In this document: positions 3,641-43,684 of the stretch, piece by piece
Position numbering within the stretch: position 1 is the first letter of the stretch
Layout: the number at the start of each line of letters is the position of its first letter
Virus record (IMG/VR): IMGVR_UViG_2914923772_000011
Coordinates: 10,054-74,053 of that record
Source of the DNA: a virus
Taxonomy: Duplodnaviria > Caudoviricetes
Direction: 5' to 3' (one strand)
DNA length: 64,000 bases
Translations under genes and position numbers: made by a program
The notes under the pieces: generated by a model
Seen by the model: the letters and a program-made list of their open reading frames with translations, nothing else
Told to the model about the DNA's origin: nothing
Database searches by the model: none

Positions 3641-3669
3641 TTGATATTATTTTTGTGGGTGGGTATAGT
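3641..3669 (+). promoter_or_regulatory. sigma70/sigmaA promoter TTGATA-N17-TATAGT, cut off from its likely ORF by the prophage
   Basis: Near-consensus hexamers with 17-nt spacer immediately left of the inferred attL. Confidence 0.5.
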
Positions 3670-3756
3670 ATAGAAACTTATCACGGTCTAACCACTTCTA
3701 AACCCCTGCAATTACGCTGTTTTCAGAGTGGTTAGAAGTGGGTAAATGCCGAGAAA

Positions 3757-3785
3757 TGTAGGTAACTCGTGCATTATTTCTACAC
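3757..3785 (+). repeat. attL-side integrase arm-type repeat (copy 1 of a 29-bp direct repeat)
   Basis: TGTAGGTAACTCGTGCATTATTTCTACAC matches 63565-63593 at 24/29; further CCTACA copies near 3790 and 3804. Confidence 0.65.
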
Positions 3786-3817
3786 TACTCCTACATCTAT
3801 ATTCCTACACAAAGTCA

Positions 3818-3880
3818 GCCTCCTCGTTGTGCTGAGTGCCTTTGTTGGTGCTCCCACTTCGGGGAGGCTTTTCTTTGTTT
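3818..3880 (+). terminator. Nested stem-loop plus T-tract downstream of integrase; probably blocks host read-through into the prophage
   Basis: AGCCTCC..GGAGGCT outer stem, GAGTGCC/GGTGCTC inner stem, followed by TTTTCTTTGTTTTT. Confidence 0.5.
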
Positions 3881-3887
3881 TTACAAG

Positions 3888-5120
3888 CTATTTTATTTTT
3901 TCGATTTCATCTTTCAACCACTCAAATTCTCTCTGGGTGTAAACCTTTTCGGTGATGTCAGAGATCTTGTGACCGACCATATATTTGATTGCGTACTCGT
4001 CAACGCCGTACTTCTTAGCCATCGTCACAAAATGTTTACGACCATCATGCGGTCTATGCTCAGGGTTCAAATTCAATTCGTCTCGAATCATACCAAAGCC
4101 TTTTTGGTATCGAGCATAAGTAAGTGCAGTGTTTTTGCTACGAGCATTCGAATTAACATAGTTGAGCAGGTACAGACTTCCAAGTTCCTGAGCCTCTTTA
4201 TATTTTCGCTCAACCAAATGACGAATCTTCGAGTGAATTGGAACCACACGATCTGTACCGGCATCTGTTTTGATACCGCCTCGGAAAGTCCAGTTTTCCA
4301 AATCCACATTCTTTAATTCCAGCAAACCAAGTTCCTGGGGTCGCCAACCAGAATAGCACTGAATGAGCAGGACATCTACAAGCATTTTATCATCAGCGTG
4401 TTTCCAAAGCAAGTCCATCTCTTCGTCCGTAAAAGGAATATGCTCATTCTTAACTGTGACGATTTCTTTGATGGTTTCCTCACTGAGGTTAAAAGTTCGC
4501 GAATAGTTCCGGTCAACAAGCTCGTACTCCAAGGCATAATCCAACATCAAGTTAAACAAAGACTTGATTTGGTTCTTCATGGATGCACTTGGTGTCTTCT
4601 CTTCGCCTCGAACCTTCGATATGCCTTCGTCCATACAACCTTTTACATGACGAGCGCGGACATCTTTGACTCGCATATCATATACGGCCGAGCAATACCC
4701 CCATGCTGAAGCTACCGAACGAGTGCTTTTAACTGTCTTCTCGTATTCGGCAAGCCATTTCTCGTAAAGTTCCCTCATGGTGATAGATGGTTCGAGGTCG
4801 TAAGGGTTCTTATTGTACTCGACGAGAGCAGCATATGCCTCGTTGTATGTTGGAAAATAGGACTCCGGTTTAAGAGGCTTGCAGATAGGTCGTCCGTTCG
4901 AATCCTTTCCGACACTTATCATAGCTCTAAATGGGTTGCGGAGATTCCGATTCTTGATCTCACTGATCTGCCCGAAACCGTTTGGCAGTCTACGGCGTTT
5001 ATTGTTCTTATTTCGAGGTTTTCTTGGTTTTATATTTGGTTGCAATGGAAATCCGCAGTGAGGACAAGAAATTGCTTTGTCACTTACTTGTAGTTCACAT
5101 TCAGGGCATTTTATCAGCAT
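3888..5120 (-). CDS. int: Tyrosine recombinase (integrase) with N-terminal zinc ribbon
   Basis: CPEC..CPHCG; catalytic R (SGWRPQEL), K (IKT), HxxR (HDGR), H (VGH), Y (KVYT). Confidence 0.95.
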   Translation of the reverse strand: MLIKCPECELQVSDKAISCPHCGFPLQPNIKPRKPRNKNNKRRRLPNGFGQISEIKNRNLRNPFRAMISVGKDSNGRPICKPLKPESYFPTYNEAYAALVEYNKNPYDLEPSITMRELYEKWLAEYEKTVKSTRSVASAWGYCSAVYDMRVKDVRARHVKGCMDEGISKVRGEEKTPSASMKNQIKSLFNLMLDYALEYELVDRNYSRTFNLSEETIKEIVTVKNEHIPFTDEEMDLLWKHADDKMLVDVLLIQCYSGWRPQELGLLELKNVDLENWTFRGGIKTDAGTDRVVPIHSKIRHLVERKYKEAQELGSLYLLNYVNSNARSKNTALTYARYQKGFGMIRDELNLNPEHRPHDGRKHFVTMAKKYGVDEYAIKYMVGHKISDITEKVYTQREFEWLKDEIEKIK

Positions 5121-5167
5121 TATTATCACCTTCCCCATTGATTTGCTATTAGTAATCATATATCATA

Positions 5168-5193
5168 AGTGTAGGAATGTCAACTCCTACACT
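5168..5193. promoter_or_regulatory. 9-bp inverted repeat AGTGTAGGA-N8-TCCTACACT in the int divergent promoter region
   Basis: Same TGTAGG/CCTACA core as the att-flanking repeats. Confidence 0.55.
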
Positions 5194-5227
5194 AAACTTT
5201 TTAATCAGAGAAAAGAGAAATCAATAT

Positions 5228-5566
5228 ATGATTAGTGATAACCAATCAATCTGCCCCAAATGTGGAGGGCAGCTTAAATACTACGATCACGTTCGAAGAT
5301 TGGTACGGACGAAATTCGGCAACAAAAAATGGGTAGCTATCAGAAGACTTCGGTGCTGTAACTGCCATGCAGTCCACCGGGAGCTTCCTGACTTTATATT
5401 TCCGTATAAACAGTATGAAGCAGACATTATTATCGGCGTGCTCGAAGGTCTTATTACTTGTGAGACTTTTGGATTTGAAGATTATCCTTGCGAAATGACT
5501 ATGATTCGCTGGCGCTTGTTTCCACCGAGGTTGTTTTTACTAACAGCCATTCCTAACCTAAAATAG
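5228..5566 (+). CDS. Zinc-ribbon protein, DUF6431-like
   Basis: CPKCGG...RLRCCNC..HRELPDFIFPYKQY pattern. Confidence 0.6.
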   Translation: MISDNQSICPKCGGQLKYYDHVRRLVRTKFGNKKWVAIRRLRCCNCHAVHRELPDFIFPYKQYEADIIIGVLEGLITCETFGFEDYPCEMTMIRWRLFPPRLFLLTAIPNLK

Positions 5567-5589
5567 CGATTGAAAGGAGGCAAACGCCA

Positions 5590-5841
5590 ATGGAAGAAAT
5601 TATATTTGCATCGGGGTCTGTCCCGGTGGCAGTCGCAGCACGAGTCTACGGGAAAGACGCATCCTGGGTTCGAGCCGGCATCGTATCTGGGTGGCTACCA
5701 ATCGGAAAAGCTACTCGGAGTGGAAAGCTCGTTACGAACTTAGAGGAAATGAACTCTAAGTATGGACGCATCAACTTTTATATTTCGCCTAAGCTCCTCT
5801 GGCAGGAGACCGGCTATATATGGAGGGGTGAACGCGCATGA
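5590..5841 (+). CDS. Small HTH protein, candidate excisionase/recombination directionality factor
   Basis: VPVAVAARVYGKDASWVRAGI helix-turn-helix-wing pattern next to int; AAAGGAGG RBS. Confidence 0.45.
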   Translation: MEEIIFASGSVPVAVAARVYGKDASWVRAGIVSGWLPIGKATRSGKLVTNLEEMNSKYGRINFYISPKLLWQETGYIWRGERA

Positions 5842-6257
5842 GTACATTGATACGACCAGAACTTTCCGAGACTAATCGTTACTGGATCGAGAAACACCGC
5901 TATTACGAATTGAAGCATTTCTGCTTACAGTACCCGTTGTGGCGTCATGCGTACAATTCGTTGATAGACTATCCGGGTTCATGGCCGCAGTTAGTTCCAC
6001 CCTGTAAAACAAATGTTGTTAGTGATCCCGTTACCAAGCACATTGATGAGAGGCTGTACTATGCCGATCGTATGAAGATGGTGGAACGGGTTGCAAAAGA
6101 AACGGACGAAGAGCTTTCGTGTTATATTTTGGAAGCTATAACGGAGGGTATTTCATACGACCATCTGAAAGCCAGAACCGGTATCCCATGTTGTAAGGAT
6201 GTTTATTACGACCTGTACAGACGGTTTTTCTGGCTGCTTAATAAGGAGAGACAGTAA
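5838..6257 (+). CDS. Hypothetical phage protein, possibly a transcriptional regulator
   Basis: Overlaps the upstream stop; C-terminal GISYDHLKARTGIPCCKDVYYDLYRRF resembles ArpU/RinA-type HTH. Confidence 0.5.
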   Translation: MSTLIRPELSETNRYWIEKHRYYELKHFCLQYPLWRHAYNSLIDYPGSWPQLVPPCKTNVVSDPVTKHIDERLYYADRMKMVERVAKETDEELSCYILEAITEGISYDHLKARTGIPCCKDVYYDLYRRFFWLLNKERQ

Positions 6258-6460
6258 TGAAGATTGTAGATATTGCAGTAAAAAAAGTCTATCGTTTCAA
6301 CTGCCCGAATTGCCAGAGTAGGCTTGAGGCCGACAGCAGTGAGCTGACAGACATCGGAGGCAAAGTAAGCAAGTTTTATTGCCCCGTATGCCGTAAAGAC
6401 CGATATATAACTTGGTCTGACTTACGGAAAAAGATCGTCTACGAGGGTTCGCAGGAATAA
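6257..6460 (+). CDS. Small zinc-ribbon protein
   Basis: CPNC and CPVC pairs; coupled start/stop. Confidence 0.7.
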   Translation: MKIVDIAVKKVYRFNCPNCQSRLEADSSELTDIGGKVSKFYCPVCRKDRYITWSDLRKKIVYEGSQE

Positions 6461-6476
6461 CAAGCTCCTTTATGAA
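6450..6476 (+). promoter_or_regulatory. Phage promoter-like motif copy 1
   Basis: CGC aggaata ACA agctccttt ATG aa. Confidence 0.65.
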
Positions 6477-6490
6477 AGGAGTGATATTTC

Positions 6491-6718: not shown

Positions 6719-6733
6719 CTGCTGAAGGATATT

Positions 6734-6770
6734 GAGCCGCTAACAACGGCTCTTTATCTTTTCTTTTTCT
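6734..6770 (+). terminator. Intrinsic terminator with CTAACAA loop
   Basis: GAGCCG-CTAACAA-CGGCTC plus T-tract. Confidence 0.8.
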
Positions 6771-6877: not shown

Positions 6878-7093
6878 ATGGAAGTCGTTTATGTAGTTGT
6901 CGGAATCTTGATTGGGTATGTCGTCTCATCTATCATTCGCCGAAAGCATCCTGTCGGTTTTCTGCGTATTGACAAGTCTGATCCGGACGGACCCTATCTT
7001 TTTCTTGAACTGAAAAAGAACGTTAATGAAATTATAGCTCAAAGAACTGTCCTATTAGAAGTGAAGCGTGAAGACTTTATTCCGCACAAATAA
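6878..7093 (+). CDS. Small membrane-anchored hypothetical protein
   Basis: N-terminal TM segment; GAAAGGAG RBS. Confidence 0.75.
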   Translation: MEVVYVVVGILIGYVVSSIIRRKHPVGFLRIDKSDPDGPYLFLELKKNVNEIIAQRTVLLEVKREDFIPHK

Positions 7094-7109
7094 CACTTCC
7101 TTTTATGGA
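7083..7109 (+). promoter_or_regulatory. Phage promoter-like motif copy 2
   Basis: CGC acaaata ACA cttcctttt ATG ga. Confidence 0.65.
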
Positions 7110-7138
7110 ACCCTATTAAAACGAAAGGAGAAACGAAT

Positions 7139-7589: not shown

Positions 7590-7616
7590 CTCGAAATTTA
7601 CAAGGGCTATTGTGAG
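7590..7616 (+). promoter_or_regulatory. Phage promoter-like motif copy 3 (variant)
   Basis: CTC gaaattt ACA agggctatt GTG ag. Confidence 0.55.
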
Positions 7617-7640
7617 AGATGTAAAAGTGCTTTTTATCTC

Positions 7641-7920: not shown

Positions 7921-7944
7921 TTAAGACTATTAGCAAAGGGGAAG

Positions 7945-7980
7945 GAGTCCTGACGAGGGCTCTTTCTCTTTTCTTTTTAT
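7945..7980 (+). terminator. Intrinsic terminator with TGACGA loop (variant of TAACAA)
   Basis: GAGTCC-TGACGA-GGGCTC plus T-tract. Confidence 0.75.
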
Positions 7981-7991
7981 AGGTGATTGAT

Positions 7992-8351
7992 ATGCGATAC
8001 CACTTTGACAAACCGGAAATTTACTTGTCCTTGTATGGCGAGCGTTATATTTGCGAGCATCCGGTTTACAATAGCTGCACTCTCTACAGAATTGAGAAAA
8101 GAGGTTTAGCAGTAATTCAGCAACGATTTGACTCCGAGACGAAAAGTACATGGTGGAGCGAAGTTGACCCTTGGATTACTGACGCTTTATATTTGCACCC
8201 TGATTTTCGAGAATACTTTGAAATGAGGGCTGGGGTGTGTACGGACGGAATATACCCTACTGTAACGGTTCGCCAAATTATGTGGGCATTAAAAATGAAA
8301 CCAATTCAGAAAGAACGATGGGAAACCGTATTCGATAGACGGGATATCTAA
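7992..8351 (+). CDS. Hypothetical phage protein
   Basis: AGGTGA RBS, intact ORF. Confidence 0.7.
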   Translation: MRYHFDKPEIYLSLYGERYICEHPVYNSCTLYRIEKRGLAVIQQRFDSETKSTWWSEVDPWITDALYLHPDFREYFEMRAGVCTDGIYPTVTVRQIMWALKMKPIQKERWETVFDRRDI

Positions 8352-8352: not shown

Positions 8353-8379
8353 CGCAAAAAACGCATCTCCCTTTATGAA
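8353..8379 (+). promoter_or_regulatory. Phage promoter-like motif copy 4
   Basis: CGC aaaaaac GCA tctcccttt ATG aa. Confidence 0.6.
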
Positions 8380-8410
8380 AACCATTGAATTTTGAAGGGA
8401 GACATGGATT

Positions 8411-8565: not shown

Positions 8566-8593
8566 GAGCCGCTAACAACGGCTCTTTTCTTTT
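8566..8593 (+). terminator. Intrinsic terminator with CTAACAA loop
   Basis: 8563-8587 is identical over 25 bp to 6731-6755. Confidence 0.8.
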
Positions 8594-8620
8594 CGCCAAA
8601 ATTACAGCTCCTGTTATGGA
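8594..8620 (+). promoter_or_regulatory. Phage promoter-like motif copy 5
   Basis: CGC caaaatt ACA gctcctgtt ATG ga. Confidence 0.65.
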
Positions 8621-8652
8621 AAACGATGCTATTTGAAAGGAGTAAAAGGAGC

Positions 8653-8878: not shown

Positions 8879-8906
8879 GAGCTGCTAACAACGGCTCTTT
8901 TCTTTT
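8879..8906 (+). terminator. Intrinsic terminator with CTAACAA loop
   Basis: GAGCTG-CTAACAA-CGGCTC plus T-tract. Confidence 0.75.
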
Positions 8907-8910: not shown

Positions 8911-8937
8911 CGCGAAATTTACAAGTCTTATTATGAG
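8911..8937 (+). promoter_or_regulatory. Phage promoter-like motif copy 6
   Basis: CGC gaaattt ACA agtcttatt ATG ag. Confidence 0.7.
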
Positions 8938-9010
8938 AGACGGGTTAGCTCAGTTGGTAGAGCGCCACACTTCCGTGGAGGTCGTCGGTTCGAATCCGAT
9001 ACAGTCTCTC
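8935..9010 (+). ncRNA. tRNA-like RNA / pseudo-tRNA (canonical D and T arms, shrunken anticodon arm, elongated acceptor stem, no CCA)
   Basis: TAGCTCAGTTGGTAGAGC D arm; GTCGG-TTCGAAT-CCGAT T arm; CCAC-ACTTCC-GTGG anticodon arm; GAGAGAC/GTCTCTC closing stem. Confidence 0.75.
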
Positions 9011-10217: not shown

Positions 10218-10244
10218 CGCAAAAAATACATTTCACTTTATGAA
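10218..10244 (+). promoter_or_regulatory. Phage promoter-like motif copy 7
   Basis: CGC aaaaaat ACA tttcacttt ATG aa. Confidence 0.7.
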
Positions 10245-10266
10245 AACGAAAAGGAGGTTTCGCTTT

Positions 10267-10437
10267 ATGAATAATGCAAAATTGGTTAAAATCCTGGGTC
10301 TTGTCGCTACCGCAGTAGGTATGGGGGCTACGCTCCTCACTGACTGGGTGAACGAGAAGAAGATGGAAGAAAAAATTGATGAACGCATCAATGAGAAGCT
10401 TGCCGCACTTAGCGATGAAGAAGATGAGGAGTCCTAA
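10267..10437 (+). CDS. 56-aa membrane-anchored peptide with acidic tail (cassette gene)
   Basis: MNNAKLVKILGLVATAVGMGATLL...; AAGGAGG RBS. Confidence 0.75.
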   Translation: MNNAKLVKILGLVATAVGMGATLLTDWVNEKKMEEKIDERINEKLAALSDEEDEES

Positions 10438-10458
10438 CAAGGGCTCTTCTTCTTTATT
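10429..10458 (+). terminator. Intrinsic terminator with TAACAA loop
   Basis: GAGTCC-TAACAA-GGGCTC plus T-rich tract. Confidence 0.75.
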
Positions 10459-11549: not shown

Positions 11550-11576
11550 CGCGAAATTTACAACTTATTTAATGGA
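11550..11576 (+). promoter_or_regulatory. Phage promoter-like motif copy 8
   Basis: CGC gaaattt ACA acttattta ATG ga. Confidence 0.7.
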
Positions 11577-11618
11577 AGAACATTCCACAATTTCACACAT
11601 TTGAAAGGAGATTTCACA

Positions 11619-11873: not shown

Positions 11874-11900
11874 AAATGCGAATTTGAGAAGTTCGGATAA

Positions 11901-11940
11901 GGGAGAGTACCTGTAACAAGGTGCTTTCCCTTTTTCTTTA
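11901..11940 (+). terminator. Intrinsic terminator with GTAACA(A) loop
   Basis: GGGAGAGTACCT-GTAACA-AGGTGCTTTCCC plus T-tract. Confidence 0.8.
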
Positions 11941-16288: not shown

Positions 16289-16504
16289 ATGATTCATACG
16301 CAAGTGTACGGGTTTTTTCAGACATGCTTACCCGACCAGGCAAAGGAGGTAAAAGAATACTTCCCAAATGGTAAAAACAGCATTCGAATTCGCAAAACCA
16401 ACGGACAGAAATTTATATTTTCGTTGAGAGAGCCGAAGGCTTGGAAGTTTGAAACGATCGAACAATTTCTTGCCGACATGAAAGGAGAAAAGAAACATGG
16501 ATGA
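16289..16504 (+). CDS. Small hypothetical protein
   Basis: GGGAG RBS; operon position. Confidence 0.65.
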   Translation: MIHTQVYGFFQTCLPDQAKEVKEYFPNGKNSIRIRKTNGQKFIFSLREPKAWKFETIEQFLADMKGEKKHG

Positions 16505-16730
16505 AATGATTCGTTATATTTTCGGAAGTCTTCGCTGCTCCGAAACTGCGATGCGTGTGTTTGCTAAGACGCTCAGAAAACAGAGGTCTTTCAATCGCAG
16601 CACCATCATGGTCGCCACGGTTATGACTGTGCACATGCTTATCCAGGACTTGGAGATTCGCAGTATGCGTGACGAGATCGGGAACCTTAAAAACGAAATC
16701 AAGGAGCTTAGAAAAACGGAAGGAGACTAA
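16497..16730 (+). CDS. Small coiled-coil protein
   Basis: GAAAGGAGAAAAGAAAC RBS. Confidence 0.7.
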   Translation: MDEMIRYIFGSLRCSETAMRVFAKTLRKQRSFNRSTIMVATVMTVHMLIQDLEIRSMRDEIGNLKNEIKELRKTEGD

Positions 16731-26700: not shown

Positions 26701-26715
26701 AGGAGGTAACGCACA

Positions 26716-26907
26716 ATGAATTATTTTCTGGCAGTTAATGATCGGCAACTTGGAACTTGCTTGAGAATGCTGTTTGCTGAAAAACTTCAACCTGCTGTCC
26801 AAACCGTGTTGAACGAAAAGGGCAAGATTGAGTTTCATATTAGCATTGCAGCAGATCAGGAAGTGTTCGAAGAGCTGAACGAACGCTACAAGATCATGAT
26901 TTCGTAA
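26716..26907 (+). CDS. 63-aa hypothetical protein (cassette gene)
   Basis: RBS; bounded by promoter motif and terminator. Confidence 0.75.
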   Translation: MNYFLAVNDRQLGTCLRMLFAEKLQPAVQTVLNEKGKIEFHISIAADQEVFEELNERYKIMIS

Positions 26908-26925
26908 GTTACTCGATTTCGAAGG

Positions 26926-26957
26926 TAAAGGGGCCGTAACAAGCCCTTTTACTTTTG
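26926..26957 (+). terminator. Intrinsic terminator with CGTAACAA loop
   Basis: TAAAGGGGC-CGTAACAA-GCCCTTTTA plus T-tract. Confidence 0.7.
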
Positions 26958-31902: not shown

Positions 31903-31939
31903 GACCGAGATGCTTAAACGGTGTCTCGGTCTTTTTTTT
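31903..31939 (+). terminator. Intrinsic terminator
   Basis: GACCGAGATGC/GTGTCTCGGTC plus T8. Confidence 0.85.
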
Positions 31940-31955: not shown

Positions 31956-31982
31956 CGCGAAAAATACATTCTCTTTTATGAA
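31956..31982 (+). promoter_or_regulatory. Phage promoter-like motif copy 10, heading the operon that contains the RNA polymerase
   Basis: CGC gaaaaat ACA ttctctttt ATG aa. Confidence 0.7.
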
Positions 31983-32065
31983 GAGAGGAGTAAAAAAGCT
32001 ATTTTTAAGAATAGACATTCTCTTTTCAGTTTTGAAAAACTACATGAAAGGAGGCTCATTTGCTA

Positions 32066-32356
32066 ATGCTCGAAAGTCAATTTCAAGCGAAGCTCATTAA
32101 GGAGCTCAAGAAACTTTTTCCAGGTTGCATCGTGATGAAAAGCGACTCTGGATATTTGCAAGGCATTCCCGATCTGCTTATTTTGTTCAATGACAAATGG
32201 GCTGCTCTGGAATGTAAACAACACGCTGGTGCAAAAAAGCAACCAAACCAAGAATATTATGTGGGTAAAATGGATGAGATGTCTTTCTCCAGATTCATTT
32301 GTCCCGAGAACAAGGAGGAAGTGCTGCATGATCTTCAACAATCATTCCAATCTTGA
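32066..32356 (+). CDS. VRR-NUC domain nuclease (resolvase-like)
   Basis: GIPDLLIL..ALECK..QPNQ PD-(D/E)xK pattern. Confidence 0.8.
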   Translation: MLESQFQAKLIKELKKLFPGCIVMKSDSGYLQGIPDLLILFNDKWAALECKQHAGAKKQPNQEYYVGKMDEMSFSRFICPENKEEVLHDLQQSFQS

Positions 32357-32885
32357 AGGGCAACACGCTTTTCTTGGTGCCAGCAAGTATCATTGGATTA
32401 ACTATGACGAAACAAAAGTAGCTGATGCTTATTCAAAGTTTTTGGCCACACAGCGAGGGACCGTTCTACATGACTTTGCATGTCAATGTATCACTTTGGG
32501 GCAAAAACTCCCCAAGTCACAGAAAACATTGAACATGTATGTCAATGACGCAATTAGTTTTCGTATGGTGCCTGAACAGATTCTGTTCTATTCAGAAAAT
32601 TGCTTTGGCACCGCCGATACGATTGTATTTCGGAATGGTACGCTTCGTATTCACGATTTGAAGACCGGTGTCGTTCCGGCGCACATGGAGCAGCTTGAAA
32701 TATACGCTGCTCTTTTTTGTTTGGAATACAAGGTGAAACCATCGGAAATCGAGATGGAACTTCGTCTGTATCAGAACAACGAAATTCTGTATCACACACC
32801 TACTGCCGAAGATATTGTTCCAATCATGGACAAGATTATTACTTTTGACAAGGTTATTAGAAAAATCAGAGAACAGGAGGGTTAA
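32328..32885 (+). CDS. Cas4-like / DUF2800-like PD-(D/E)xK exonuclease
   Basis: HAFLGAS, FGTAD, IHDLKTG, QLEIYAAL. Confidence 0.75.
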   Translation: MIFNNHSNLEGQHAFLGASKYHWINYDETKVADAYSKFLATQRGTVLHDFACQCITLGQKLPKSQKTLNMYVNDAISFRMVPEQILFYSENCFGTADTIVFRNGTLRIHDLKTGVVPAHMEQLEIYAALFCLEYKVKPSEIEMELRLYQNNEILYHTPTAEDIVPIMDKIITFDKVIRKIREQEG

Positions 32886-32888: not shown

Positions 32889-35609
32889 ATGAGTCTCACG
32901 GATGATATTTTAATGCATTACGGTATGCCCAGAAGGTCTGGTCGTTATCCTTGGGGTTCGGGTGATAACCCTTATCAGCACAGCGGTGATTTTCTTTCCC
33001 GTGTAGAGGAACTGAAAAAGTCCAATTTCACCTTTACCGATAAAGATGGAAAAACTTACACAGGAGAAGTAGCCATTGCAAAATCTATGGGCTTGAGTAC
33101 AACCCAATTTCGTACCCAGATGAGCCTTGCAAAGGATGAACGCCGTTCTGCTGATGTCGCTACGGCTAAGGCTCTTCGTGCTAAGGGTTATAGTTTGAAT
33201 GAAATCGCTGATAAGATGGGCTTTGCTAACGATTCTTCGGTTCGCTCGCTTTTGAATGAGAGTTCCGAAGCTCGTATGAATCAGGCAAAGCAGACCGCTG
33301 AATTTCTGAAAAAACAGATTTCGGAAAAAGGCATGATCGATGTCGGAACCGGAGTCGAAAGAGAGCTTGGTATTTCGAAAGAGAAAATGAACCAGGCTCT
33401 TTATATTTTGGAAATGGAAGGCTATCCCATCTATGGCGGCGGTGTCCCTCAGGTAACAAACCCGGGTAAGCAAACAAACATCAAGGTTCTCTGCCCTCCA
33501 GGAACAGAGCATAAAGAGATTTATAATTTCGAGAATGTCCATTCCGTCAGAGACTATGTGTCTCATGATGACGGCGAGACATTCGACAAGTTTGTCTATC
33601 CTAAAAGTATGGATTCAAGCCGCTTGAAAATCCGTTATGCGGAAGATGGCGGTATTCAGAAAGATGGTGTCATTGAAATTCGTCGTGGTGTAGACGACTT
33701 ATCTCTCGGTGATTCCCATTATGCTCAGGTTCGCATCTTGGTCGACGGCAATAGATATCTGAAAGGAATGGCTGTTTATTCTGATGATCTTCCTGATGGT
33801 GTGGATGTAATGTTCAACACCAATAAGAAAAAGGGCACTCCGACATCGGATGTTCTGAAGAAGGTAAAGGATGACCCCGATAATCCGTTTGGTTCCCTTA
33901 TCAAAGCCGGTGGGCAGAGCTATTATATCGATGCTGATGGTAAACGACAGCTCTCCCTTATCAATAAGCGTGCTGAAGAGGGCGATTGGGGTGAATGGGC
34001 GGATAAACTCCCCTCCCAGTTTCTTTCTAAACAGAGTTTGAGTCTTGTCAATAAACAGCTGAATTTGGCGGCATCTGATAAGATGGCTGAATTTGATGAA
34101 ATCTGCTCACTGACAAATCCGACGGTCAAAAAATCATTACTGAAATCCTTTGCGGATGATTGTGACTCTGCTGCTGTGCACCTTCAGGCAGCTGCTCTTC
34201 CTCGTCAGAAATATCAGGTGATCCTACCTATCACTTCGATGAAAGACAATGAAGTGTATGCCCCGAATTACAAGAATGGTGAAACAGTAGCTCTGGTTCG
34301 TTACCCACATGGCGGAACTTTTGAGATTCCTATCCTTACAGTGAATAACAAGCAGGCAGAGGCTCGTCGAATCCTTGGCAACACACCTAAAGATGCAATC
34401 GGTATTAACAGTAAGGTTGCGGAACGGCTTTCAGGTGCTGACTTTGATGGTGATACTGTCATGGTCATCCCCTGTAACTCTGGTAAAAGCAAGGTCAAGA
34501 TTACTTCCACTCCTCCTCTGAAGGGACTTGAAGGATTTGACCCAAAATTGGAGTATGGTGGAAAACCGGCTGGCACTTTCAAGCCTATGAAGAACACACA
34601 GAAAGAGATGGGTGTCATTTCTAATCTGATTACCGATATGACTTTGAAGGGTGCCACGCAGGATGAGCTTGCAAGAGCCGTTCGCCATAGCATGGTAGTT
34701 ATCGATGCCGAAAAACACAAGCTGGACTATAAGCAAAGTGAGATCGACAATGGCATCAGCTCTTTGAAAAAGAAGTATCAGGGCACGGTTGACGAAGACG
34801 GAAGATACCACGAGGGTGCTTCGACTCTGATTTCCCGTGCTAAATCGGAGACTTCTGTCACTAAGAGGCAAGGTAGTCCGAAAATCGATGAAAAGACAGG
34901 CGAATACATATGGAAAGATGTGGATGACCCTGTTTATGTCGATAAGCGAACTGGCAAGGTCAAAGAGCGTACTCAGCCCAGCACTAAGATGGCTGAGGCA
35001 AAGGACGCCTATACCCTGGTTTCCGAAGCTGATACCCCCGTGGAGCGTGCTTATGCTAACTATGCCAACAAAATGAAAGCCCTGGGCAACCAGGCTCGTC
35101 TTGAGATCCTCTCCACTGGGAAAGTACCCTACTCCGCCACTGCAAAAGAGGCCTATCAAGCTGAGGTCGATTCTCTGAATGCTAAGCTCAATGTAGCTCT
35201 GAAGAATGCACCCAGAGAAAGGCAGGCTCAGACTATGGCTAATGCGGTAGTGGCTGCTAAAAAGCAGGACAATCCGGATATGACAAAGGGCGAGCTCAAG
35301 AAAGCAAGCCAGCAGGCGCTTACTCAGGCTCGTGCCTCTGTTGGTGCAAAGCGAGAGACCATCAAGATTACAGATCGTGAATGGGAAGCAATTCAAGCTG
35401 GCGCTATTAGCGAGAATAAGCTTACCCAAATCATCGACAATGTGGACATTGACAGTCTTAGACAGCGTGCAACACCGAGAGCGACAACAACTCTCAGCAC
35501 TGCAAAGCAGAATAAGATCGCTTCGATGAATGCTTCTGGTTACAGCACATCGGAAATTGCTGAAGCTCTTGGCATTTCTACGAGCACAGTGTCCAATTAC
35601 TTGAATTGA
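32889..35609 (+). CDS. Single-polypeptide two-barrel (multisubunit-RNAP-related) RNA polymerase with terminal sigma4-like HTH domains
   Basis: VRYPHGG..AIGINSKVAERLSGADFDGDTV parallels beta-prime RxP..NADFDGD; HTHs GYSLNEIADKMG and GYSTSEIAEALGISTSTVSNYL. Confidence 0.8.
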   Translation: MSLTDDILMHYGMPRRSGRYPWGSGDNPYQHSGDFLSRVEELKKSNFTFTDKDGKTYTGEVAIAKSMGLSTTQFRTQMSLAKDERRSADVATAKALRAKGYSLNEIADKMGFANDSSVRSLLNESSEARMNQAKQTAEFLKKQISEKGMIDVGTGVERELGISKEKMNQALYILEMEGYPIYGGGVPQVTNPGKQTNIKVLCPPGTEHKEIYNFENVHSVRDYVSHDDGETFDKFVYPKSMDSSRLKIRYAEDGGIQKDGVIEIRRGVDDLSLGDSHYAQVRILVDGNRYLKGMAVYSDDLPDGVDVMFNTNKKKGTPTSDVLKKVKDDPDNPFGSLIKAGGQSYYIDADGKRQLSLINKRAEEGDWGEWADKLPSQFLSKQSLSLVNKQLNLAASDKMAEFDEICSLTNPTVKKSLLKSFADDCDSAAVHLQAAALPRQKYQVILPITSMKDNEVYAPNYKNGETVALVRYPHGGTFEIPILTVNNKQAEARRILGNTPKDAIGINSKVAERLSGADFDGDTVMVIPCNSGKSKVKITSTPPLKGLEGFDPKLEYGGKPAGTFKPMKNTQKEMGVISNLITDMTLKGATQDELARAVRHSMVVIDAEKHKLDYKQSEIDNGISSLKKKYQGTVDEDGRYHEGASTLISRAKSETSVTKRQGSPKIDEKTGEYIWKDVDDPVYVDKRTGKVKERTQPSTKMAEAKDAYTLVSEADTPVERAYANYANKMKALGNQARLEILSTGKVPYSATAKEAYQAEVDSLNAKLNVALKNAPRERQAQTMANAVVAAKKQDNPDMTKGELKKASQQALTQARASVGAKRETIKITDREWEAIQAGAISENKLTQIIDNVDIDSLRQRATPRATTTLSTAKQNKIASMNASGYSTSEIAEALGISTSTVSNYLN

Positions 35610-35623: not shown

Positions 35624-35887
35624 ATGAATGGTTCTTGTGCCCTTACCACATTTGACAACCCTTACAATCCATTTGAACAGTTCTCCGATTGGTTCCTGTT
35701 TGATGTAGAAAAGGGTTACAACACTTGCGCTTATCTCGATCGAATTGCTCACACTTCTGACCAATTCTCTGAAGAAGAGAACAATCAAGAGATTGAAAGA
35801 GCGATTGACGAGATCATTCGTTACGACTTCATGAACATTTACAAGAAAGTTAAGAGAACGAAAACAACAAAAGCAGACAAGGCTTGA
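35624..35887 (+). CDS. Small conserved hypothetical protein
   Basis: GAAAGGAG RBS directly after the RNAP gene. Confidence 0.75.
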   Translation: MNGSCALTTFDNPYNPFEQFSDWFLFDVEKGYNTCAYLDRIAHTSDQFSEEENNQEIERAIDEIIRYDFMNIYKKVKRTKTTKADKA

Positions 35888-36066
35888 ACTATAGGTTGAG
35901 GTCTAATGCTCTTTGAATAAAGTTTTTGTTTTCTTCTCTGAAAACATTTGAACTTGAAGCCAACACAAACAAATAATCACTTGATCTGCACTGCTGCCGC
36001 AGGGCTTAAAGACATGGGGAGGGGGTCTCCAAAATCGCACCCCCTACCTCATCGCGGTGGTCTTAA

Positions 36067-36094
36067 AAAAATCTCCGGAGGGATATTTTGGAAA
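36067..36094 (+). promoter_or_regulatory. Second-class conserved motif (copy B), candidate late promoter
   Basis: 22/28 identical to 6828-6855; upstream of the hairpin RNA, tRNA and packaging genes. Confidence 0.4.
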
Positions 36095-36110: not shown

Positions 36111-36242
36111 GGTGCAGTATTTGAACGAGCTTACAGGGTTGAGACATTTTCCATAAAGTGTGAACATCTCCTTTCATGTTTCTTTTCTCCTTTCGGTGAT
36201 TGGTGGAAATTCAACTCTGTAAGTTCTTTCAAATACTGCACC
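36111..36242 (+). ncRNA. Hairpin RNA with 32-bp stem and tandem anti-Shine-Dalgarno loop
   Basis: Arms 36111-36142 and 36211-36242 pair at 29/32 Watson-Crick plus two G-U on the + strand; loop contains CTCCTTTCATGTTTCTTTTCTCCTTTCGGT. Confidence 0.7.
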
Positions 36243-37840: not shown

Positions 37841-38242
37841 ATGGATAATACAACACTTGCCCATCACGGCATCATCGGCATGAAATGGGGAGTCCGGCGC
37901 TATCAGAATAAAGATGGCACTCGTACCGCAGCCGGAAAGAAAAGAGAAAGTTCTTCTAAGTCTGATGCTCCTGCTCACGAGGACTATGCTAAAGCTCATA
38001 ACAGTAAGAGCGTTAAGTCTATGAGTGATGCAGAGCTTCGCAACCGACTGAATCGTCTTCAGATGGAGAAACAGTATAGTCAATTGTCTTCGACTGATGT
38101 GAATCGTGGAAAGGAATATGTATCGAAAACTCTAAAAGTCGCCGGAACAATTGCAACCGCTACTTCGACCGCCTTAACCATTTACAATAACTATGGCAAG
38201 ATCAAAGAAATTGTAAACGGTATGGCTAAGAAGGCTGGCTAA
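37841..38242 (+). CDS. DUF7211-like head accessory protein 1
   Basis: LAHHGIIGMKWGVRRYQNKDGT. Confidence 0.7.
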   Translation: MDNTTLAHHGIIGMKWGVRRYQNKDGTRTAAGKKRESSSKSDAPAHEDYAKAHNSKSVKSMSDAELRNRLNRLQMEKQYSQLSSTDVNRGKEYVSKTLKVAGTIATATSTALTIYNNYGKIKEIVNGMAKKAG

Positions 38243-39998: not shown

Positions 39999-40011
39999 GG
40001 AGGTGGTCAAG

Positions 40012-40485
40012 TTGGATGAGATGTACCATCACGGTATTCTCGGTCAGAAATGGGGCGTTCGTCGTTTCCAGAACAAAGACGGAACTTTGACCGCAGCAGG
40101 TCAAAAGCGTTTGGAAAAGAAAGACGCAAAGTGGGCTCATAAAAATCACAACAAAATCGTGACTAAAGCTCGCAAAGAAGTTTCCAAAGAACTCGATCAG
40201 TATGCCAATCAACTATTGAAAAATCTTTCTTCTGTGACATCGAAAGGTAAGATCAGTTCTTCGGCTATCAATTCCTATAATCGGAAGATGGCGGAACTGA
40301 TGAATGAGTCTGTCAAGAATGTTACAGCACCTTCGGGGCGTGTCGTTCAATTCGTTGCAAAACGAGGAGAAGTTGGTGTGCATATGGCTCTGGCTGACAG
40401 AGGGTATGATATGCAGCAGCTGAAGAACGGCATCTGGGCTTCCGGTCGAGTTGCCTATAAGAAGAAAAATGTTGATATGGTTTAA
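40012..40485 (+). CDS. DUF7211-like head accessory protein 2
   Basis: MYHHGILGQKWGVRRFQNKDGTLT; TTG start after AAGGAGG. Confidence 0.7.
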   Translation: MDEMYHHGILGQKWGVRRFQNKDGTLTAAGQKRLEKKDAKWAHKNHNKIVTKARKEVSKELDQYANQLLKNLSSVTSKGKISSSAINSYNRKMAELMNESVKNVTAPSGRVVQFVAKRGEVGVHMALADRGYDMQQLKNGIWASGRVAYKKKNVDMV

Positions 40486-40502
40486 GGAGGTGATGATTCA
40501 AA

Positions 40503-41792
40503 ATGGAGATGTCTTTTGGTTCCAGATTGAAACATGCTTGGAATGCGTTTACTGGCAATGTTCAAATGAACTACCGGGATTTGGGTATGAGTTATTCATA
40601 TCGAGCTGACAGACCAAGAATGTCCAGAGGCAATGAAAGATCAATCGTCACATCGGTTTATAACCGAATTGCGCTTGATGTTGCTGCACTGAATGTTCAG
40701 CATGTTCGGTTGGACGAAAATGGGCGTTTTCTTTCGGTCATCGATGACGGATTGAATAATTGCCTCACTTTGGAAGCGAATGTCGATCAGACGGCACGGT
40801 CATTCGTTCAGGATGTAGTTATCTCTATGTTTGATGAAGGAAGCGTGGCTATTGTTCCGGTCGACACCACGACTGACCCAAATGTGTCCGGTTCGTATGA
40901 TATACAGTCTCTGCGTGTCGGACAGATTTTAGACTGGTATCCTCAGTATATTCGTGCTCGTGTGTACAATGAACAAACGGGCAGAAAAGAAGATATTGTG
41001 GTGCCGAAAAGTGCAGTGGCTATCATTGAAAATCCACTGTACGCAGTTATCAATGAGCCGAACTCAACTATGCAGCGGCTCATTCGTAAACTTAACCTAC
41101 TTGATGTCATTGATGAGCAAAGCGGATCTGGAAAACTCGATTTGATTATTCAGCTCCCTTATGTAATCAAGACAGAAGCAAAGCGTCAACAAGCCGAAAA
41201 TCGGCGTAAAGATATAGAAAACCAGTTGTCAGGTTCAAAGTATGGTATTGCTTACACTGATGGTACTGAGCATATCACACAGTTGAATCGTTCCGTGAAC
41301 AACAACCTAATGTCCCAGATTGAATACTTGACGAGTATGCTATACAGCCAGTTGGGAATCACTCAGAGCATTTTGGATGGAACAGCGGACGAGAAGACAA
41401 TGCTGAACTATAACAACCGGACAATCGAGCCGATCATTTCCGCTATTGTTGATGAGATGAAACGAAAGTTTCTGACCAAAACTGCCCGATCACAACACCA
41501 GTCAATTTCATTCTTCAGAGACCCGTTCAAGCTGGTTCCTGTTAATGACATTGCTGAAATTGCTGACAAGTTTACAAGAAATGAAATCATGACTTCGAAT
41601 GAAATTCGTCAGGTAGTCGGTATGAAACCCTCCGAGGACCCGAGAGCAGATGAACTCAGAAATAAGAACCTGAGTGCGCCGTCCGGTTCCAATCAGCAGT
41701 CGGAAGAAATGCCTATTGCCGAAGTTGATTCAGTTGGAGACTCAGCAAGTGATTTGGACGACAAAATCTCTAAGCAAAAATCGAAAAAGTAA
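40503..41792 (+). CDS. Portal protein
   Basis: Position after TerL; 429 aa; VYNRIALDVA..TSNEIR HK97-type pattern. Confidence 0.85.
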   Translation: MEMSFGSRLKHAWNAFTGNVQMNYRDLGMSYSYRADRPRMSRGNERSIVTSVYNRIALDVAALNVQHVRLDENGRFLSVIDDGLNNCLTLEANVDQTARSFVQDVVISMFDEGSVAIVPVDTTTDPNVSGSYDIQSLRVGQILDWYPQYIRARVYNEQTGRKEDIVVPKSAVAIIENPLYAVINEPNSTMQRLIRKLNLLDVIDEQSGSGKLDLIIQLPYVIKTEAKRQQAENRRKDIENQLSGSKYGIAYTDGTEHITQLNRSVNNNLMSQIEYLTSMLYSQLGITQSILDGTADEKTMLNYNNRTIEPIISAIVDEMKRKFLTKTARSQHQSISFFRDPFKLVPVNDIAEIADKFTRNEIMTSNEIRQVVGMKPSEDPRADELRNKNLSAPSGSNQQSEEMPIAEVDSVGDSASDLDDKISKQKSKK

Positions 41793-41806
41793 GGAGGAAA
41801 TTCAAA

Positions 41807-43684
41807 ATGAGTAGACCTTTTTCGGTTGAGGCTTGTGATTTCAGCGGCTGGGCAACCCGAAACGACCTTAAGTGTTCTGATGGACGAGTAATTCGTCGGG
41901 ACGCCTTTAAGAATAACGACGGTATTAAAGTCCCGCTGGTCTGGAATCATCAGCACAACAGTCCTCGTGATGTTCTCGGTCATGCATGGCTTGAGAACCG
42001 TGAGGAAGGTGTTTACACCTATGGCTTTCTCAATGACACCGCTGATGGTGAAATTGCGAAAGTCCTTATCAAGCACGGTGACATCTGTGCTCTGTCCATT
42101 TACGCCAATCAGCTCCAGCAGGCTGGTCCCGATGTGCTGCATGGCTGTATTTGCGAGGTGAGCCTGGTGCATAAGGGCGCTAACCCCGGTGCATTTATTG
42201 ATTCTATGCTGAAGCACGGCGAAATGTCCGACGATGAAGCCATCATCTATACCGGAATGCCTCTCTGTCTTTCTCATTCTTCCGAGTCTAAGGATGCGCA
42301 GAAAGAAGAGGAAAAGAAGGAGGATACCAAAGAGGACAAGTCTGCTGAAAACAAGGAAGAGAAGAAGGACAATGAAGAGACGATCGCTGATGTGATCGAT
42401 TCCATGTCTGAGAAGCAGCAGAATGTCATGTATGCGCTTATCACACAGGCTCTCGAAGGCGAACCCGAAAAGGAATCCAAGGATGATTCCGACAACAAAT
42501 CTGAATCCAATAAGGAGGATAACACAATGAAACATAATGTCTTTGATAACGATCAGCAGAAGAAGACCGAGGTTCTGTCTCATGCTGACCAGGCAAGCAT
42601 CATTTCTATGGCCAAGTCCAACAGCGTCGGCAGTCTCCGTACTGCTATGGACATTTATGCAGAGCAGAATCCTGACAGTGTTCTGGCTCATGGTATCGAC
42701 GGTATTGAAACCCTGTTCCCTGAGTACAAGGATGTCCGTCCCGGTGCTCCTGAACTGCTTACCACTGACCAGGGTTGGGTGAATGAGGTTCTGAAGAAGG
42801 TTCACAAGAGCCCTATTTCCCGTATCCGTACTCGTCAGGCTGACCTGCGTAACATTGAGGCTCTTCGTGCTAAGGGTTACAAGAAGGGTGCCCAGAAGGG
42901 TTATGTCGGCAACATTCAGCTGCTCCACAGAACGACTGATCCTCAGACCGTGTATGTAAAGAGTAAGCTTGACCGTGATGACATCATCGATATTCAGGAC
43001 TTCGATGTGGTGCAGTATCTGTACGGCATCGACCGTATGAATCTGAACGAGGAACTGGCTACGGCTATCATGATCGGTGACGGTCGCGAGGTCGGTGCTG
43101 ATGGTAAGATCGCCGAGGATAAGATCCGCCCGATTTGGTTGGATGACGAGCTGTATACCATCCATGCTGACGTTGACATTGCCGGCATGAAGGCTACTCT
43201 CCAGGGCACCAATACTTCCGCTAATTTCGGCGAGAATTACATTTATGCAGAAGCCGTGATTCAGTCTCTGCTGTATGCTCGTGAGAAGTATAAGGGTTCC
43301 GGCACTCCCGACTTCTACTGCACGCCCCATTTGGTCAATGTCATGCTGCTTGCCCGTGACCTGAATGGCCGTCGCATCTATGACAAGGTTAGCGATCTGG
43401 CTGCGGCTTTGAATGTTGGACAGATCATCACCGCCGAACAGTTCGAGGGTAAGACTCGTACTACCACGGACAGCAAGACCAAGAAGCTTCTAGGACTGAT
43501 GGTCAATCTGGCTGATTATTCTCTGGGCGCTACCAAGGGCGGCGAAATCACTCACTTCACCGATTTCGATATCGACTTCAACCAGGAGAAGAGCCTGCTG
43601 GAGACTCGTTGCTCCGGCGCCAACACTCGTGTCATGTCTGCTATCGCTCTGGAAGAGGATGTCACTGCCAATATTGGCGGCTAA
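41807..43684 (+). CDS. Prohead protease - scaffold - major capsid protein fusion
   Basis: N-terminal VPLVWNHQH..LGH..EVSLV..GANP protease; charged linker; C-terminal capsid domain; in-frame internal RBS and ATG at 42527. Confidence 0.85.
   Translation: MSRPFSVEACDFSGWATRNDLKCSDGRVIRRDAFKNNDGIKVPLVWNHQHNSPRDVLGHAWLENREEGVYTYGFLNDTADGEIAKVLIKHGDICALSIYANQLQQAGPDVLHGCICEVSLVHKGANPGAFIDSMLKHGEMSDDEAIIYTGMPLCLSHSSESKDAQKEEEKKEDTKEDKSAENKEEKKDNEETIADVIDSMSEKQQNVMYALITQALEGEPEKESKDDSDNKSESNKEDNTMKHNVFDNDQQKKTEVLSHADQASIISMAKSNSVGSLRTAMDIYAEQNPDSVLAHGIDGIETLFPEYKDVRPGAPELLTTDQGWVNEVLKKVHKSPISRIRTRQADLRNIEALRAKGYKKGAQKGYVGNIQLLHRTTDPQTVYVKSKLDRDDIIDIQDFDVVQYLYGIDRMNLNEELATAIMIGDGREVGADGKIAEDKIRPIWLDDELYTIHADVDIAGMKATLQGTNTSANFGENYIYAEAVIQSLLYAREKYKGSGTPDFYCTPHLVNVMLLARDLNGRRIYDKVSDLAAALNVGQIITAEQFEGKTRTTTDSKTKKLLGLMVNLADYSLGATKGGEITHFTDFDIDFNQEKSLLETRCSGANTRVMSAIALEEDVTANIGG

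Follow-up and report, generated by a model that had tools for sequence, protein, structure and literature searches.

The stretch of viral DNA analysed here (64,000 nucleotides of the IMG/VR provirus record IMGVR_UViG_2914923772_000011; called the window below) corresponds to the non-structural half of a temperate, Oengusvirus-like siphophage that resides as a prophage in the gut bacterium Clostridium leptum; C. leptum DSM 753 has the same prophage, with a 100% identical RNA polymerase (RNAP) gene. The question raised by this locus is whether the phage runs its own programme of gene expression. The original prediction had proposed such a programme: a virion-borne or induced RNAP fires ten compact promoters, terminators with a conserved loop are read through into the replication genes, these genes share one ribosome-binding site (RBS), and a late hairpin RNA complementary to this site shuts them down. 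We found all of these elements in the sequence and above chance, as judged by a position weight matrix (PWM) for the promoter motif, by counts of the RBS and by covariation in the hairpin. On balance we consider it probable that the phage uses an RNAP with its own promoters, nested transcription units and a hairpin RNA that pairs with the RBSs of early genes. The coordinates of the features are collected in Table 1.

The putative promoters are ten copies of a rigid motif of 28-32 nt with the consensus CGCnAAAATtACA-n4-CywTTATGRRA. All ten copies are intergenic and situated on the plus strand, and none was found on the minus strand. In a leave-one-out PWM analysis the copies scored 14-32 bits; for 100 shuffles the best score was 9.8 bits on average and 20.6 bits at most. 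A PWM scan of the window gave no additional match above 13 bits and none on the minus strand. Relative to the preceding annotated gene, the starts of the copies range from 10 nt within it to 60 nt beyond it. From the end of a copy to the following start codon or RNA gene the distance is 17-110 nt, and two of the copies lie 10-14 nt 3' of a hairpin. The first base of a tRNA-like gene is found 4 nt after the TATG of copy 6, which leaves almost no leader, and in Faecalibacterium phage FP_oengus a tRNA-like gene (L081 2935-3006; 'tRNA-???' in ARAGORN) begins directly after the TATG of the motif. Because the motif abuts tRNA-like genes in both phages, transcription would be expected to start at or just after the G of TATG. 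The tRNA-like gene of the window may be a non-decoding tRNA mimic.

Among 80 related cassette regions (1.29 Mb) the motif was matched 633 times on the coding strand and not once on the other strand. These matches represent 176 distinct sequences, in which two blocks, positions 1-13 and 18-28, are kept around four free positions. Around the RNAP gene 80 loci were compared, and wherever the flank is long enough a copy is located about 935 nt upstream of this gene; together with copy 10 of the window this bears out the prediction that the polymerase operon itself is preceded by the motif. The same 32-nt register, on the coding strand only, was found in FP_oengus (15 copies), Streptomyces phage Moozy (7), Arthrobacter phage Arcadia (8), Gordonia phage Secretariat (10) and Lactococcus phage 1706 (at least 2), and in most of these distant phages one copy precedes a block of endonuclease, exonuclease and RNAP genes. 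The RNAP gene and the motif co-occur across two phyla, the motif being present in six RNAP-carrying phage genera. CGC, TTACA and TAT are the parts fixed across phages; in the last block the Clostridial phages have TATG, and the actinophages and 1706 have TATAAT or TATAGT.

Three whole host genomes were scanned with a degenerate pattern fitting all ten copies, the reversed pattern serving as control. All 9 matches in C. leptum fell inside its RNAP prophage, as did all 14 matches in Cuneatibacter caecimuris, which has two such prophages. The genome of Hungatella hathewayi contained 10 matches, 7 of them inside its RNAP prophage, the other three being poor matches. In total, 30 of 33 matches were inside the four RNAP prophages, and the control gave 0-1. 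Since the motif is essentially confined to RNAP prophages in these three genomes, it is not used by a host regulon. The proposed tie between the ten copies and the polymerase is borne out both by the shared register in RNAP-carrying phages of two phyla and by the absence of the motif from the host chromosomes outside the prophages.

The phage-own polymerase that had been postulated could also be recognized. The open reading frame (ORF) 32889-35609 is, by profile and model, a predicted two-barrel (double-psi beta-barrel) RNAP with a helix-turn-helix (HTH) module at either end. The match to phrog_4291 spans the full length (residues 4-906, 1373 bits). Its metal-binding loop ADFDGD (DxDGD, of the beta-prime-like barrel) is invariant in 59 homologues with 48-62% identity, and in the alignment of these 59 sequences S-G-A-D-F-D-G-D and 50 other positions do not vary; invariant basic residues are K292, K313, K324, R245 and R282. 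The C-terminal HTH scored above the Pfam cut-offs for HTH_38, GerE and Sigma70_r4_2. A sequence search against PDB chains gave nothing useful, and matches were obtained by fold search alone, using an AlphaFold (AF2) model that was built on the 59-sequence alignment and has a mean pLDDT of 88. Foldseek returned QDE-1 (E 1.4e-8), gp64 of phage P32 (E 2e-6; a P23-45-like Thermus non-virion RNAP), plant RDR2 and, more weakly, beta-prime subunits and a crAss-like virion RNAP. In VIA-align superpositions, which covered about 360 residues within model residues 238-748, Z was 15.4 for QDE-1 (365 residues, rmsd 4.2), 13.6 for P74 gp62, 13.3 for RDR2 and about 10 for the largest subunits of Pol I/II. 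The last 43 residues aligned with small HTH DNA-binding domains with Z of about 7. The 1383-aa ORF 16740-20891 was rejected as an RNAP candidate on account of its match to a primase/DNA polymerase profile.

The polymerase belongs to the 1706/PHROG 4291 family and differs in nothing from it. ORF75 of 1706 and gp55 of FP_oengus match over the full length, and across the 1706, Oengus, Moozy, Arcadia and Secretariat proteins the identity is 38-52%; by tblastn it is 38% for the 1706 protein and 50-52% for the actinophage proteins, with the flanking genes kept. The neighbours, too, are the same as in the window, with endonuclease and exonuclease upstream, the small conserved gene downstream and then cos. 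The family comprises 2,619 clusters at 50% identity and is carried by gut Clostridia prophages, dairy lactococcal phages and hundreds of actinophages. A '1706 family' of YonO-like proteins is already in print and is handled there as separate from, and distantly related to, the SPbeta group (Ruprich-Robert and Thuriaux 2010, PMC2919709), and an HTH-flanked 'putative RNA polymerase' is a signature gene of an actinophage supercluster together with the 1706 and Oengus phages (bioRxiv 10.1101/842583). Among 253 phage tblastn matches of the catalytic core (E up to 10) no Bacillus phage was found, the inclusion of SPbeta in the search not being verified. Because BLAST finds no link to Bacillus phages, we file the polymerase of the window under the 1706 family and not under YonO proper.

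Given the motif and the polymerase, the ten copies are very probably promoters of this RNAP, as judged from sequence. With its two HTH modules the RNAP would be the obvious reader of the motif, and one of these modules would recognize the upstream motif block. Several observations weigh against this assignment. No sigma-A-type promoter was found at the site ahead of the RNAP operon, and as the operon is placed behind its own promoter and a strong upstream terminator, which by its sequence should insulate it from upstream transcription, the first RNAP molecules need another source. Delivery of the enzyme in the virion, one of the two options of the original prediction, gained no support from the sequence beyond a weak N-terminal resemblance to two head-region proteins, and the annotation of 1706 orf75 is not structural. 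Furthermore, no motif precedes the late genes of the window, and neither a motif-type nor a clear sigma-A-type promoter for the late genes and the hairpin was found between 35887 and 36410. The simplest reading is that they would be transcribed by continuation from the RNAP operon across the joined cos. Finally, the TATAAT of the actinophage versions could in principle be recognized by host RNAP.

This last point leads to the alternative that the motif is read by host RNAP, alone or with a phage or host factor, while the phage enzyme serves for priming or late transcription. The bootstrapping problem of the RNAP operon would then disappear, the TATAAT or TATAGT in the actinophage and 1706 versions would be accounted for, and it could be added that YonO transcribes late and not early genes (PMC5467207), whereas the motif here precedes early genes. 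Nevertheless we regard recognition by host RNAP as unlikely. The geometry of a sigma-70 promoter is not found, as the TTACA block is only 6-8 nt upstream of the TAT block instead of 16-18 nt and the Clostridial TATGRA is without the final T, at -7. In 12.5 Mb of host chromosome the motif does not occur apart from the RNAP prophages. Moreover, the RNAP is the only candidate factor kept across all motif-bearing phages, being the sole protein with recognizable DNA-binding domains among the non-structural proteins kept in five distant relatives.

The motif could also be a protein site other than a promoter, that is, a stoperator-like repressor site, a site of cassette-exchange recombination or a processing signal. 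Stoperators of cluster A mycobacteriophages are likewise asymmetric, occur in one orientation and are situated in short intergenic gaps, and the motif marks cassette borders beside hairpins. We consider such a role very improbable. The motif is kept where the annotation showed neither an integrase nor an obvious repressor, namely in Moozy (whole record) and in the non-structural halves of Arcadia and Secretariat; it is also present in 1706, a phage described as virulent that has no annotated integrase and one annotated 'putative repressor'. No relative of the integrase of the window was found in the distant motif-bearing phages compared. In addition, the motif stands directly 5' of a tRNA-like gene that has no other promoter, always keeps its 17-110 nt distance from the start codon, and resembles promoters of phage RNAPs in its AT-rich block with purines after it.

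If the motif copies are promoters of the RNAP, each of them would drive one or two small genes ending at a hairpin with a U-tract, so that nested units would result, and one promoter would drive the operon of the RNAP itself behind a strong ordinary terminator. Seven hairpins with a T(A/G)AC(A/G)A loop were identified, which by sequence qualify as intrinsic terminators: their stems are G+C-rich, their tails T-rich and their predicted energies -10 to -23 kcal/mol. Most of them have no more than 6-10 bp and -10 to -15 kcal/mol, and their U-tracts are interrupted. In the relatives 54 distinct hairpins carry this loop on at least five different closing stems; the loop thus reflects more than local duplication. 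Further afield it occurs once in FP_oengus, which otherwise has GAAA loops at the equivalent positions, and as CTAACAC in Moozy. It is close to an even question whether the loops carry no signal at all and are merely inherited at cassette borders, the hairpins being ordinary leaky terminators or 3' stabilizers; we place this explanation slightly below even. The similarity of the stems to each other (GAGCCG/CGGCTC, GAGTCC/GGGCTC), the GAAA loops of FP_oengus and the short stems with their interrupted U-tracts fit such an inheritance, whereas the identical loop on several closing stems and its recurrence in FP_oengus and Moozy do not.

Read-through as such follows partly from the arrangement of the genes. 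Between 11963 and 26661 no motif and no convincing sigma-A site was found, and because this block has no motif of its own, its transcription must pass the hairpin at 11899; the 15-kb replication block would accordingly be reached by reading through this hairpin. In this part the original prediction holds. The RNAP operon, in contrast, is shielded by the strong terminator.

The shared RBS that had been proposed for the replication genes is real, and it marks a different set of genes. The 12-mer GAAAGGAGAAAA is present in 12 exact copies in the window, 11 of them on the plus strand, and allowing up to one mismatch 21 matches were found where 0.93 are expected. It precedes early genes generally (small ORFs, DUF6353 genes) and is not used by the genes for the DNA polymerase, the helicase and the RNAP. 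The core GAAAGGAG was counted 27 times in the early region of the phage versus 3 times in the late region, and AAGGAGG 11 times in each. In 80 close relatives all 317 copies of the 12-mer are on the coding strand. Out of 17 exact copies in the whole C. leptum genome 12 are inside the prophage, and the arrangement GAAAGGAG-N8-ATG is found at only 21 host sites in this genome. On these counts we rejected the possibility that the 12-mer is an ordinary Shine-Dalgarno (SD) sequence of the host; judged by its distribution it is a phage dialect and not the host norm. A perfect early RBS with GTG was also noticed inside the primase-polymerase gene (18527-18546), out of frame; no ORF of at least 80 aa starts there.

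The sole minus-strand copy of the 12-mer (36183-36194) is situated in the apex of a hairpin that begins about 50 nt past the probable cos site, at the head of the late genes. We place cos at roughly 36040-36090 because the physical ends of 1706 and Moozy align (at about 36062) and many related contigs stop there. The junction consists of a G-run, a C-run and CATCGCGG…TCT / AAAAATCTCCGG, and this block is kept in all relatives. For the plus strand of the hairpin, RNAalifold on 22 relatives gave -48.5 kcal/mol and 30 pairs, 15 of them with compensatory changes and none broken; for the minus strand it gave -19.7 kcal/mol and only 21 pairs, with A-C mismatches. When the pairs were counted, 99.4% of the cells were paired, none of 500 shuffles was as good, and sliding the partners reduced the value to 25-45%. 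A covariance model recovered the hairpin from about 37 prophages (Lachnospiraceae, Oscillospiraceae and others), where it is situated 350-650 nt 3' of the RNAP gene. The plus strand always scored far above the minus strand (140 versus 57 bits in the window), and the match in FP_oengus is weak. The RNAP gene, the motif and the hairpin are therefore found together in related phages, as the programme had been expected to require. No Rfam family, C4 antisense RNA included, was matched, either at gathering or with E up to 5; only chance-level matches to miRNA precursors, with scores far under gathering, were obtained. From this covariation we conclude that 36111-36242 is a real conserved RNA structure of the plus strand.

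The complementarity to the RBS could have a trivial cause, namely that a small minus-strand gene has its RBS and start codon there. Indeed, GAAAGGAGAAAAGAAACATG opens a frame of 44 codons on this strand in the phage of the window and its close relatives. The frame and its start codon are lost in four other lineages (L063, L068, L074 and L080), in which the hairpin and the CU motif remain. Moreover, all wobble pairs are G-U on the plus strand and A-C on the minus strand, and the strand difference of the covariance scores likewise speaks for the plus strand. A minus-strand gene can therefore be practically dismissed.

The stem sequences of the hairpin vary widely, and the apex retains CUCCUUUC, predicted to be in loops, in every distinct sequence except one; 1706 and FP_oengus have the same design with UCUCCUUU in a small loop. 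In actinophages a long hairpin without a CU-rich apex was observed near the left genome end (Secretariat, L169 91-183; Arcadia, L168 300-520), and this stem may have a role of its own, apart from the anti-SD motif.

What the apex could pair with is suggested by its sequence. CUCCUUUC corresponds to the tail of the host 16S rRNA, and GGATCACCTCCTTTCT is found twice in the C. leptum genome. The 22-nt antisense stretch of the apex covers the RBS, the spacer, the start codon and two more bases of gene 24699. In the L042 lineage the apex spacer is shorter, and a matching 22-nt site is found on a different early gene; in the L080 lineage an 18-nt match covers the RBS and the spacer and stops short of the start codon. 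In 17 lineages, with about 13 kb of early region available per relative, matches within the own genome averaged 14.7 nt and matches across genomes 12.7 nt (permutation p = 5e-5, a value inflated by the relatedness of the loci). According to the predicted duplex energies an early-type RBS would pair better with the hairpin apex than with the 16S tail (-21.0 versus -12.7 kcal/mol), whereas for a late-type RBS the order is reversed (-8.3 versus -17.7 kcal/mol). We thus envisage that an RNA of about 130 nt, made from the plus strand just past cos, would pair with RBSs, preferentially with the GAAAGGAGAAAA of the phage early genes.

Three findings count against this part of the account: the long complementarity exists in three to four lineages only, with generic SD pairing elsewhere; kinship among the loci inflates the test of own against other genomes; and the exact 12-mer was found neither in FP_oengus nor in 1706 nor in the actinophages. 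The anti-RBS RNA of the original prediction is a consistent idea with a measure of comparative support from the co-varying plus-strand hairpin, its anti-SD apex and the lineage-specific matches.

Alternatively the hairpin could act in cis, as an element for RNase III processing or stability that divides the RNAP message from the late one, as a leader masking the first late RBS, or in packaging or replication, as single-stranded nucleic acid near cos. A perfect stem of 30 bp is a classical substrate of RNase III. The constant location about 50 nt from cos, with the RNAP operon on one side and the first late gene on the other, would also suit a cis element, as would the long hairpin at the same place in actinophages, which is without the CU-rich apex, and the generic SD pairing of most lineages. 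Difficult to reconcile with it are the lineage-specific matches of 18-22 nt to early start sites and, in the phage of the window, a tRNA gene between the hairpin and the first late gene, which argues against a cis contact that depends on distance. Furthermore, because the stem varies freely while CUCCUUUC stays nearly invariant, the apex and not the helix alone appears to be under selection. Taken as a whole, action in cis is a serious possibility to which we assign clearly less than an even chance, and we hold a cis role and an RNA blocking early start sites to be about as likely.

Combining the promoters with the hairpin RNA, one can picture a switch of two layers. A private promoter would serve the early cassettes and the RNAP. 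The hairpin RNA would be made once transcription crosses the joined cos into the late leader and, perhaps released by RNase III, would outcompete ribosomes at the early start sites, spare the late-type sites and co-evolve with its targets. In this complete form the proposal is rather doubtful.

How does such a programme compare with known systems? YonO of the Bacillus prophage SPbeta, like the polymerase of the window, is a single-chain two-barrel enzyme of a temperate Firmicutes phage (PMC5467207). It is a DNA-dependent RNAP that transcribes a late operon from one start site, its promoter being left undefined (Forrest et al. 2017, PMC5467207). In contrast, the motif of the window precedes early cassettes and the RNAP operon, and HTHs at both ends of the polymerase mark the 1706 family. 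The closest solved phage structures belong to the gp64 group of Thermus phage P23-45. The gp64 protein is a two-barrel single-chain non-virion RNAP that reads its own repeated GC-rich promoters before early genes; these were mapped by cappable-seq and ChIP-seq, and a virion RNAP fused to the tape measure seeds the programme (PMC10770324). The motif sequences of P23-45 and the window are unrelated, no second RNAP was seen in the window, and its putative promoters are predicted from sequence.

With T7-type programmes the window would share a compact promoter of fixed geometry, in which an AT-rich block immediately precedes a start rich in purines (…TATAGTGAGA in phage 1706 and the actinophages), and nested transcripts formed through leaky hairpins. 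T7 has a single-subunit, right-hand, Pol I-like RNAP, promoters of about 23 nt and a leaky terminator. As the folds of the polymerases are unrelated, the likeness is one of working logic only. The hairpin RNA resembles the c4 antisense RNA of P1/P7 and the C-rich sRNAs of the RsaE/RoxS type of Bacillota in that a structured RNA exposes short pyrimidine loops which are complementary to RBS regions of its own element or cell. It differs from them by its one stem of 30 bp, its apex of 80 nt and its location beside cos in the late leader; its targets and its action in trans are predicted only.

The polymerase family had already been predicted. A new variation on the theme of a phage bringing its own transcription programme is seen in the candidate promoter, the hairpins with their conserved loop, the RBS dialect and the anti-SD hairpin RNA taken together. 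The accessible parts of the 1706-family papers contain no promoter-like motif, loop-conserved hairpins or anti-SD hairpin RNA, and no promoter is named in them (PMC2919709, bioRxiv 10.1101/842583); nor was a description of the motif sequences or of promoters found in the open-access portions of actinophage cluster papers. We found no report in the literature of a functional test or a named promoter for a 1706/PHROG 4291 enzyme. A promoter candidate of 28 nt with its register kept across two phyla would make promoter recognition by single-chain two-barrel enzymes testable, for which Lactococcus 1706 and the Arthrobacter and Gordonia phages are tractable systems. Recognition may run via the built-in HTH modules without a sigma factor, and the pair of RNAP and promoter could yield compact orthogonal expression systems for Gram-positive hosts. 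The hairpin RNA, if it acts as proposed, would be a phage case of a mimic of the mRNA-docking site of the ribosome aimed at the own early genes, and would constitute an RNA-based early-to-late translational switch co-evolving with its target start sites.

Table 1. Positions of the putative promoters, hairpins and associated genes in the window.
Feature	Position	Strand	Remarks
Tyrosine integrase	3888-5159	-	left of the plus-strand gene block
Motif copy 1	6450-6481	+	
Terminator-like hairpin	6734-6752	+	loop CTAACAA
Motif copy 2	7083-7114	+	promoter-like
Motif copy 3	7590-7621	+	weakest copy; CTC and TGTG variants
Terminator-like hairpin	7935-7972	+	loop TGACGA
Motif copy 4	8353-8384	+	directly 3' of ORF 7983-8351
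Terminator-like hairpin	8566-8584	+	loop CTAACAA
Motif copy 5	8594-8625	+	10 nt 3' of hairpin 8566-8584
Terminator-like hairpin	8879-8897	+	loop CTAACAA
Motif copy 6	8911-8942	+	runs straight into the tRNA-like gene
tRNA-like gene	8939-9007	+	shortened anticodon arm; Rfam tRNA 39.6 bits; missed by ARAGORN
Motif copy 7	10218-10249	+	promoter-like
Terminator-like hairpin	10426-10449	+	loop TAACAA
Motif copy 8	11550-11581	+	last copy ahead of the replication block
Terminator-like hairpin	11899-11932	+	loop TGTAACAA; -23 kcal/mol
Start region of early gene 16497-16730	16480-16499	+	candidate target of the hairpin RNA; gene directly 5' of the primase-polymerase gene
Primase/DNA polymerase fusion	16740-20891	+	1383 aa, phrog_4210
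Start region of early gene 24699-24998	24682-24703	+	candidate target of the hairpin RNA; gene product 99 aa
Motif copy 9	26674-26705	+	one-gene cassette 26716-26907
Terminator-like hairpin	26920-26957	+	loop CGTAACAA
Strong ordinary terminator	31903-31931	+	12-bp stem, T8; 25 nt 5' of motif copy 10
Motif copy 10	31956-31987	+	ahead of the endonuclease-exonuclease-RNAP operon; 25 nt 3' of terminator 31903-31931
Endonuclease	32060-32356	+	one operon with the RNAP gene; kept in 5 of 5 relatives
Exonuclease	32328-32885	+	one operon with the RNAP gene; kept in 5 of 5 relatives
Predicted single-chain two-barrel RNAP	32889-35609	+	906 aa, 1706/PHROG 4291 family; from profile, motif and model
Parts of the RNAP (residues)			N-terminal HTH about 59-147; catalytic core about 238-748; ADFDGD 517-522; C-terminal HTH 864-906
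Small conserved gene	35624-35887	+	87 aa; always 3' of the RNAP gene; last gene before cos
Probable cos site (virion genome ends)	36040-36090		physical ends of 1706 and Moozy align; many related contigs end here
Conserved hairpin, 30-bp co-varying stem	36111-36242	+	CUCCUUUC in 8-nt loop 36168-36175; UUUUCUCCUUUC at 36183-36194
Antisense stretch of the hairpin apex, 22 nt	36173-36194	+	exact reverse complement of 24682-24703 and of 20 nt at 16480-16499

Nearly all genes from 5177 to the end of the window are on the plus strand. Small cassette genes are followed by three DUF6353 genes and the 1383-aa primase/DNA polymerase, then by genes for an annealing protein, a methylase, a helicase and an anaerobic ribonucleotide reductase, and then by the endonuclease, the exonuclease, the 906-aa protein and a non-coding gap with a tRNA-Leu. 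Terminase, portal, a protease-capsid fusion and tail and lysis genes complete the order. FP_oengus has the same gene order, and its proteins are 41-74% identical to those of the window. The non-structural proteins kept in all five distant relatives are the DUF6353 proteins, one 201-aa protein, the DNA polymerase, the helicase, the endonuclease, the exonuclease, the RNAP and the 87-aa protein 3' of it. Small early proteins near the integrase (5590-6257) were found in only one of these five relatives, FP_oengus. The small early proteins of 5177-6460 were considered as sigma-like factors and rejected, as they had no Pfam support and their conservation stops at FP_oengus.

Some cassette genes between 6257 and 12151 encode very small proteins with a single hydrophobic helix (6491, 6878, 8411), and those at 6257 and 7705 have zinc-ribbon motifs. 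Such small one-helix and zinc-ribbon cassette genes fit the 'arrays of small membrane proteins' of the Arthrobacter clusters AM and AU (PMC5513430). Upstream of the prophage, positions 1-2544 encode the C-terminal part of a very large SNF2/helicase-type protein, and an XRE-type HTH gene (2675-3091, minus strand) and a YpsA/SLOG-like gene (3160-3630) are situated between it and the integrase.

The N-terminus of the RNAP (LMHYGMPRRSGRYPWGSG, 32889-32990) is disordered in the model and nearly invariant in the 59 homologues. Two head-region proteins (37841-38242 and 40012-40485) begin with the DUF7211 peptide HHGIxGxKWGVRR, to which the N-terminus of the RNAP has only a weak H-h-G-h resemblance. 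Both could be a common docking or capsid-targeting peptide, going by their sequences; as a capsid-targeting signal of the RNAP the peptide was rejected, the resemblance being too weak to claim packaging.

In the tail region, just 3' of a 615-aa gene (57331-59178), a reverse transcriptase locus was noticed at 59445-60690. It contains an RT-18 RNA motif (44.7 bits, above gathering) directly 5' of a reverse transcriptase of 386 aa (RVT_1, E 4e-19) and is possibly a diversity-generating retroelement acting on a tail fibre.

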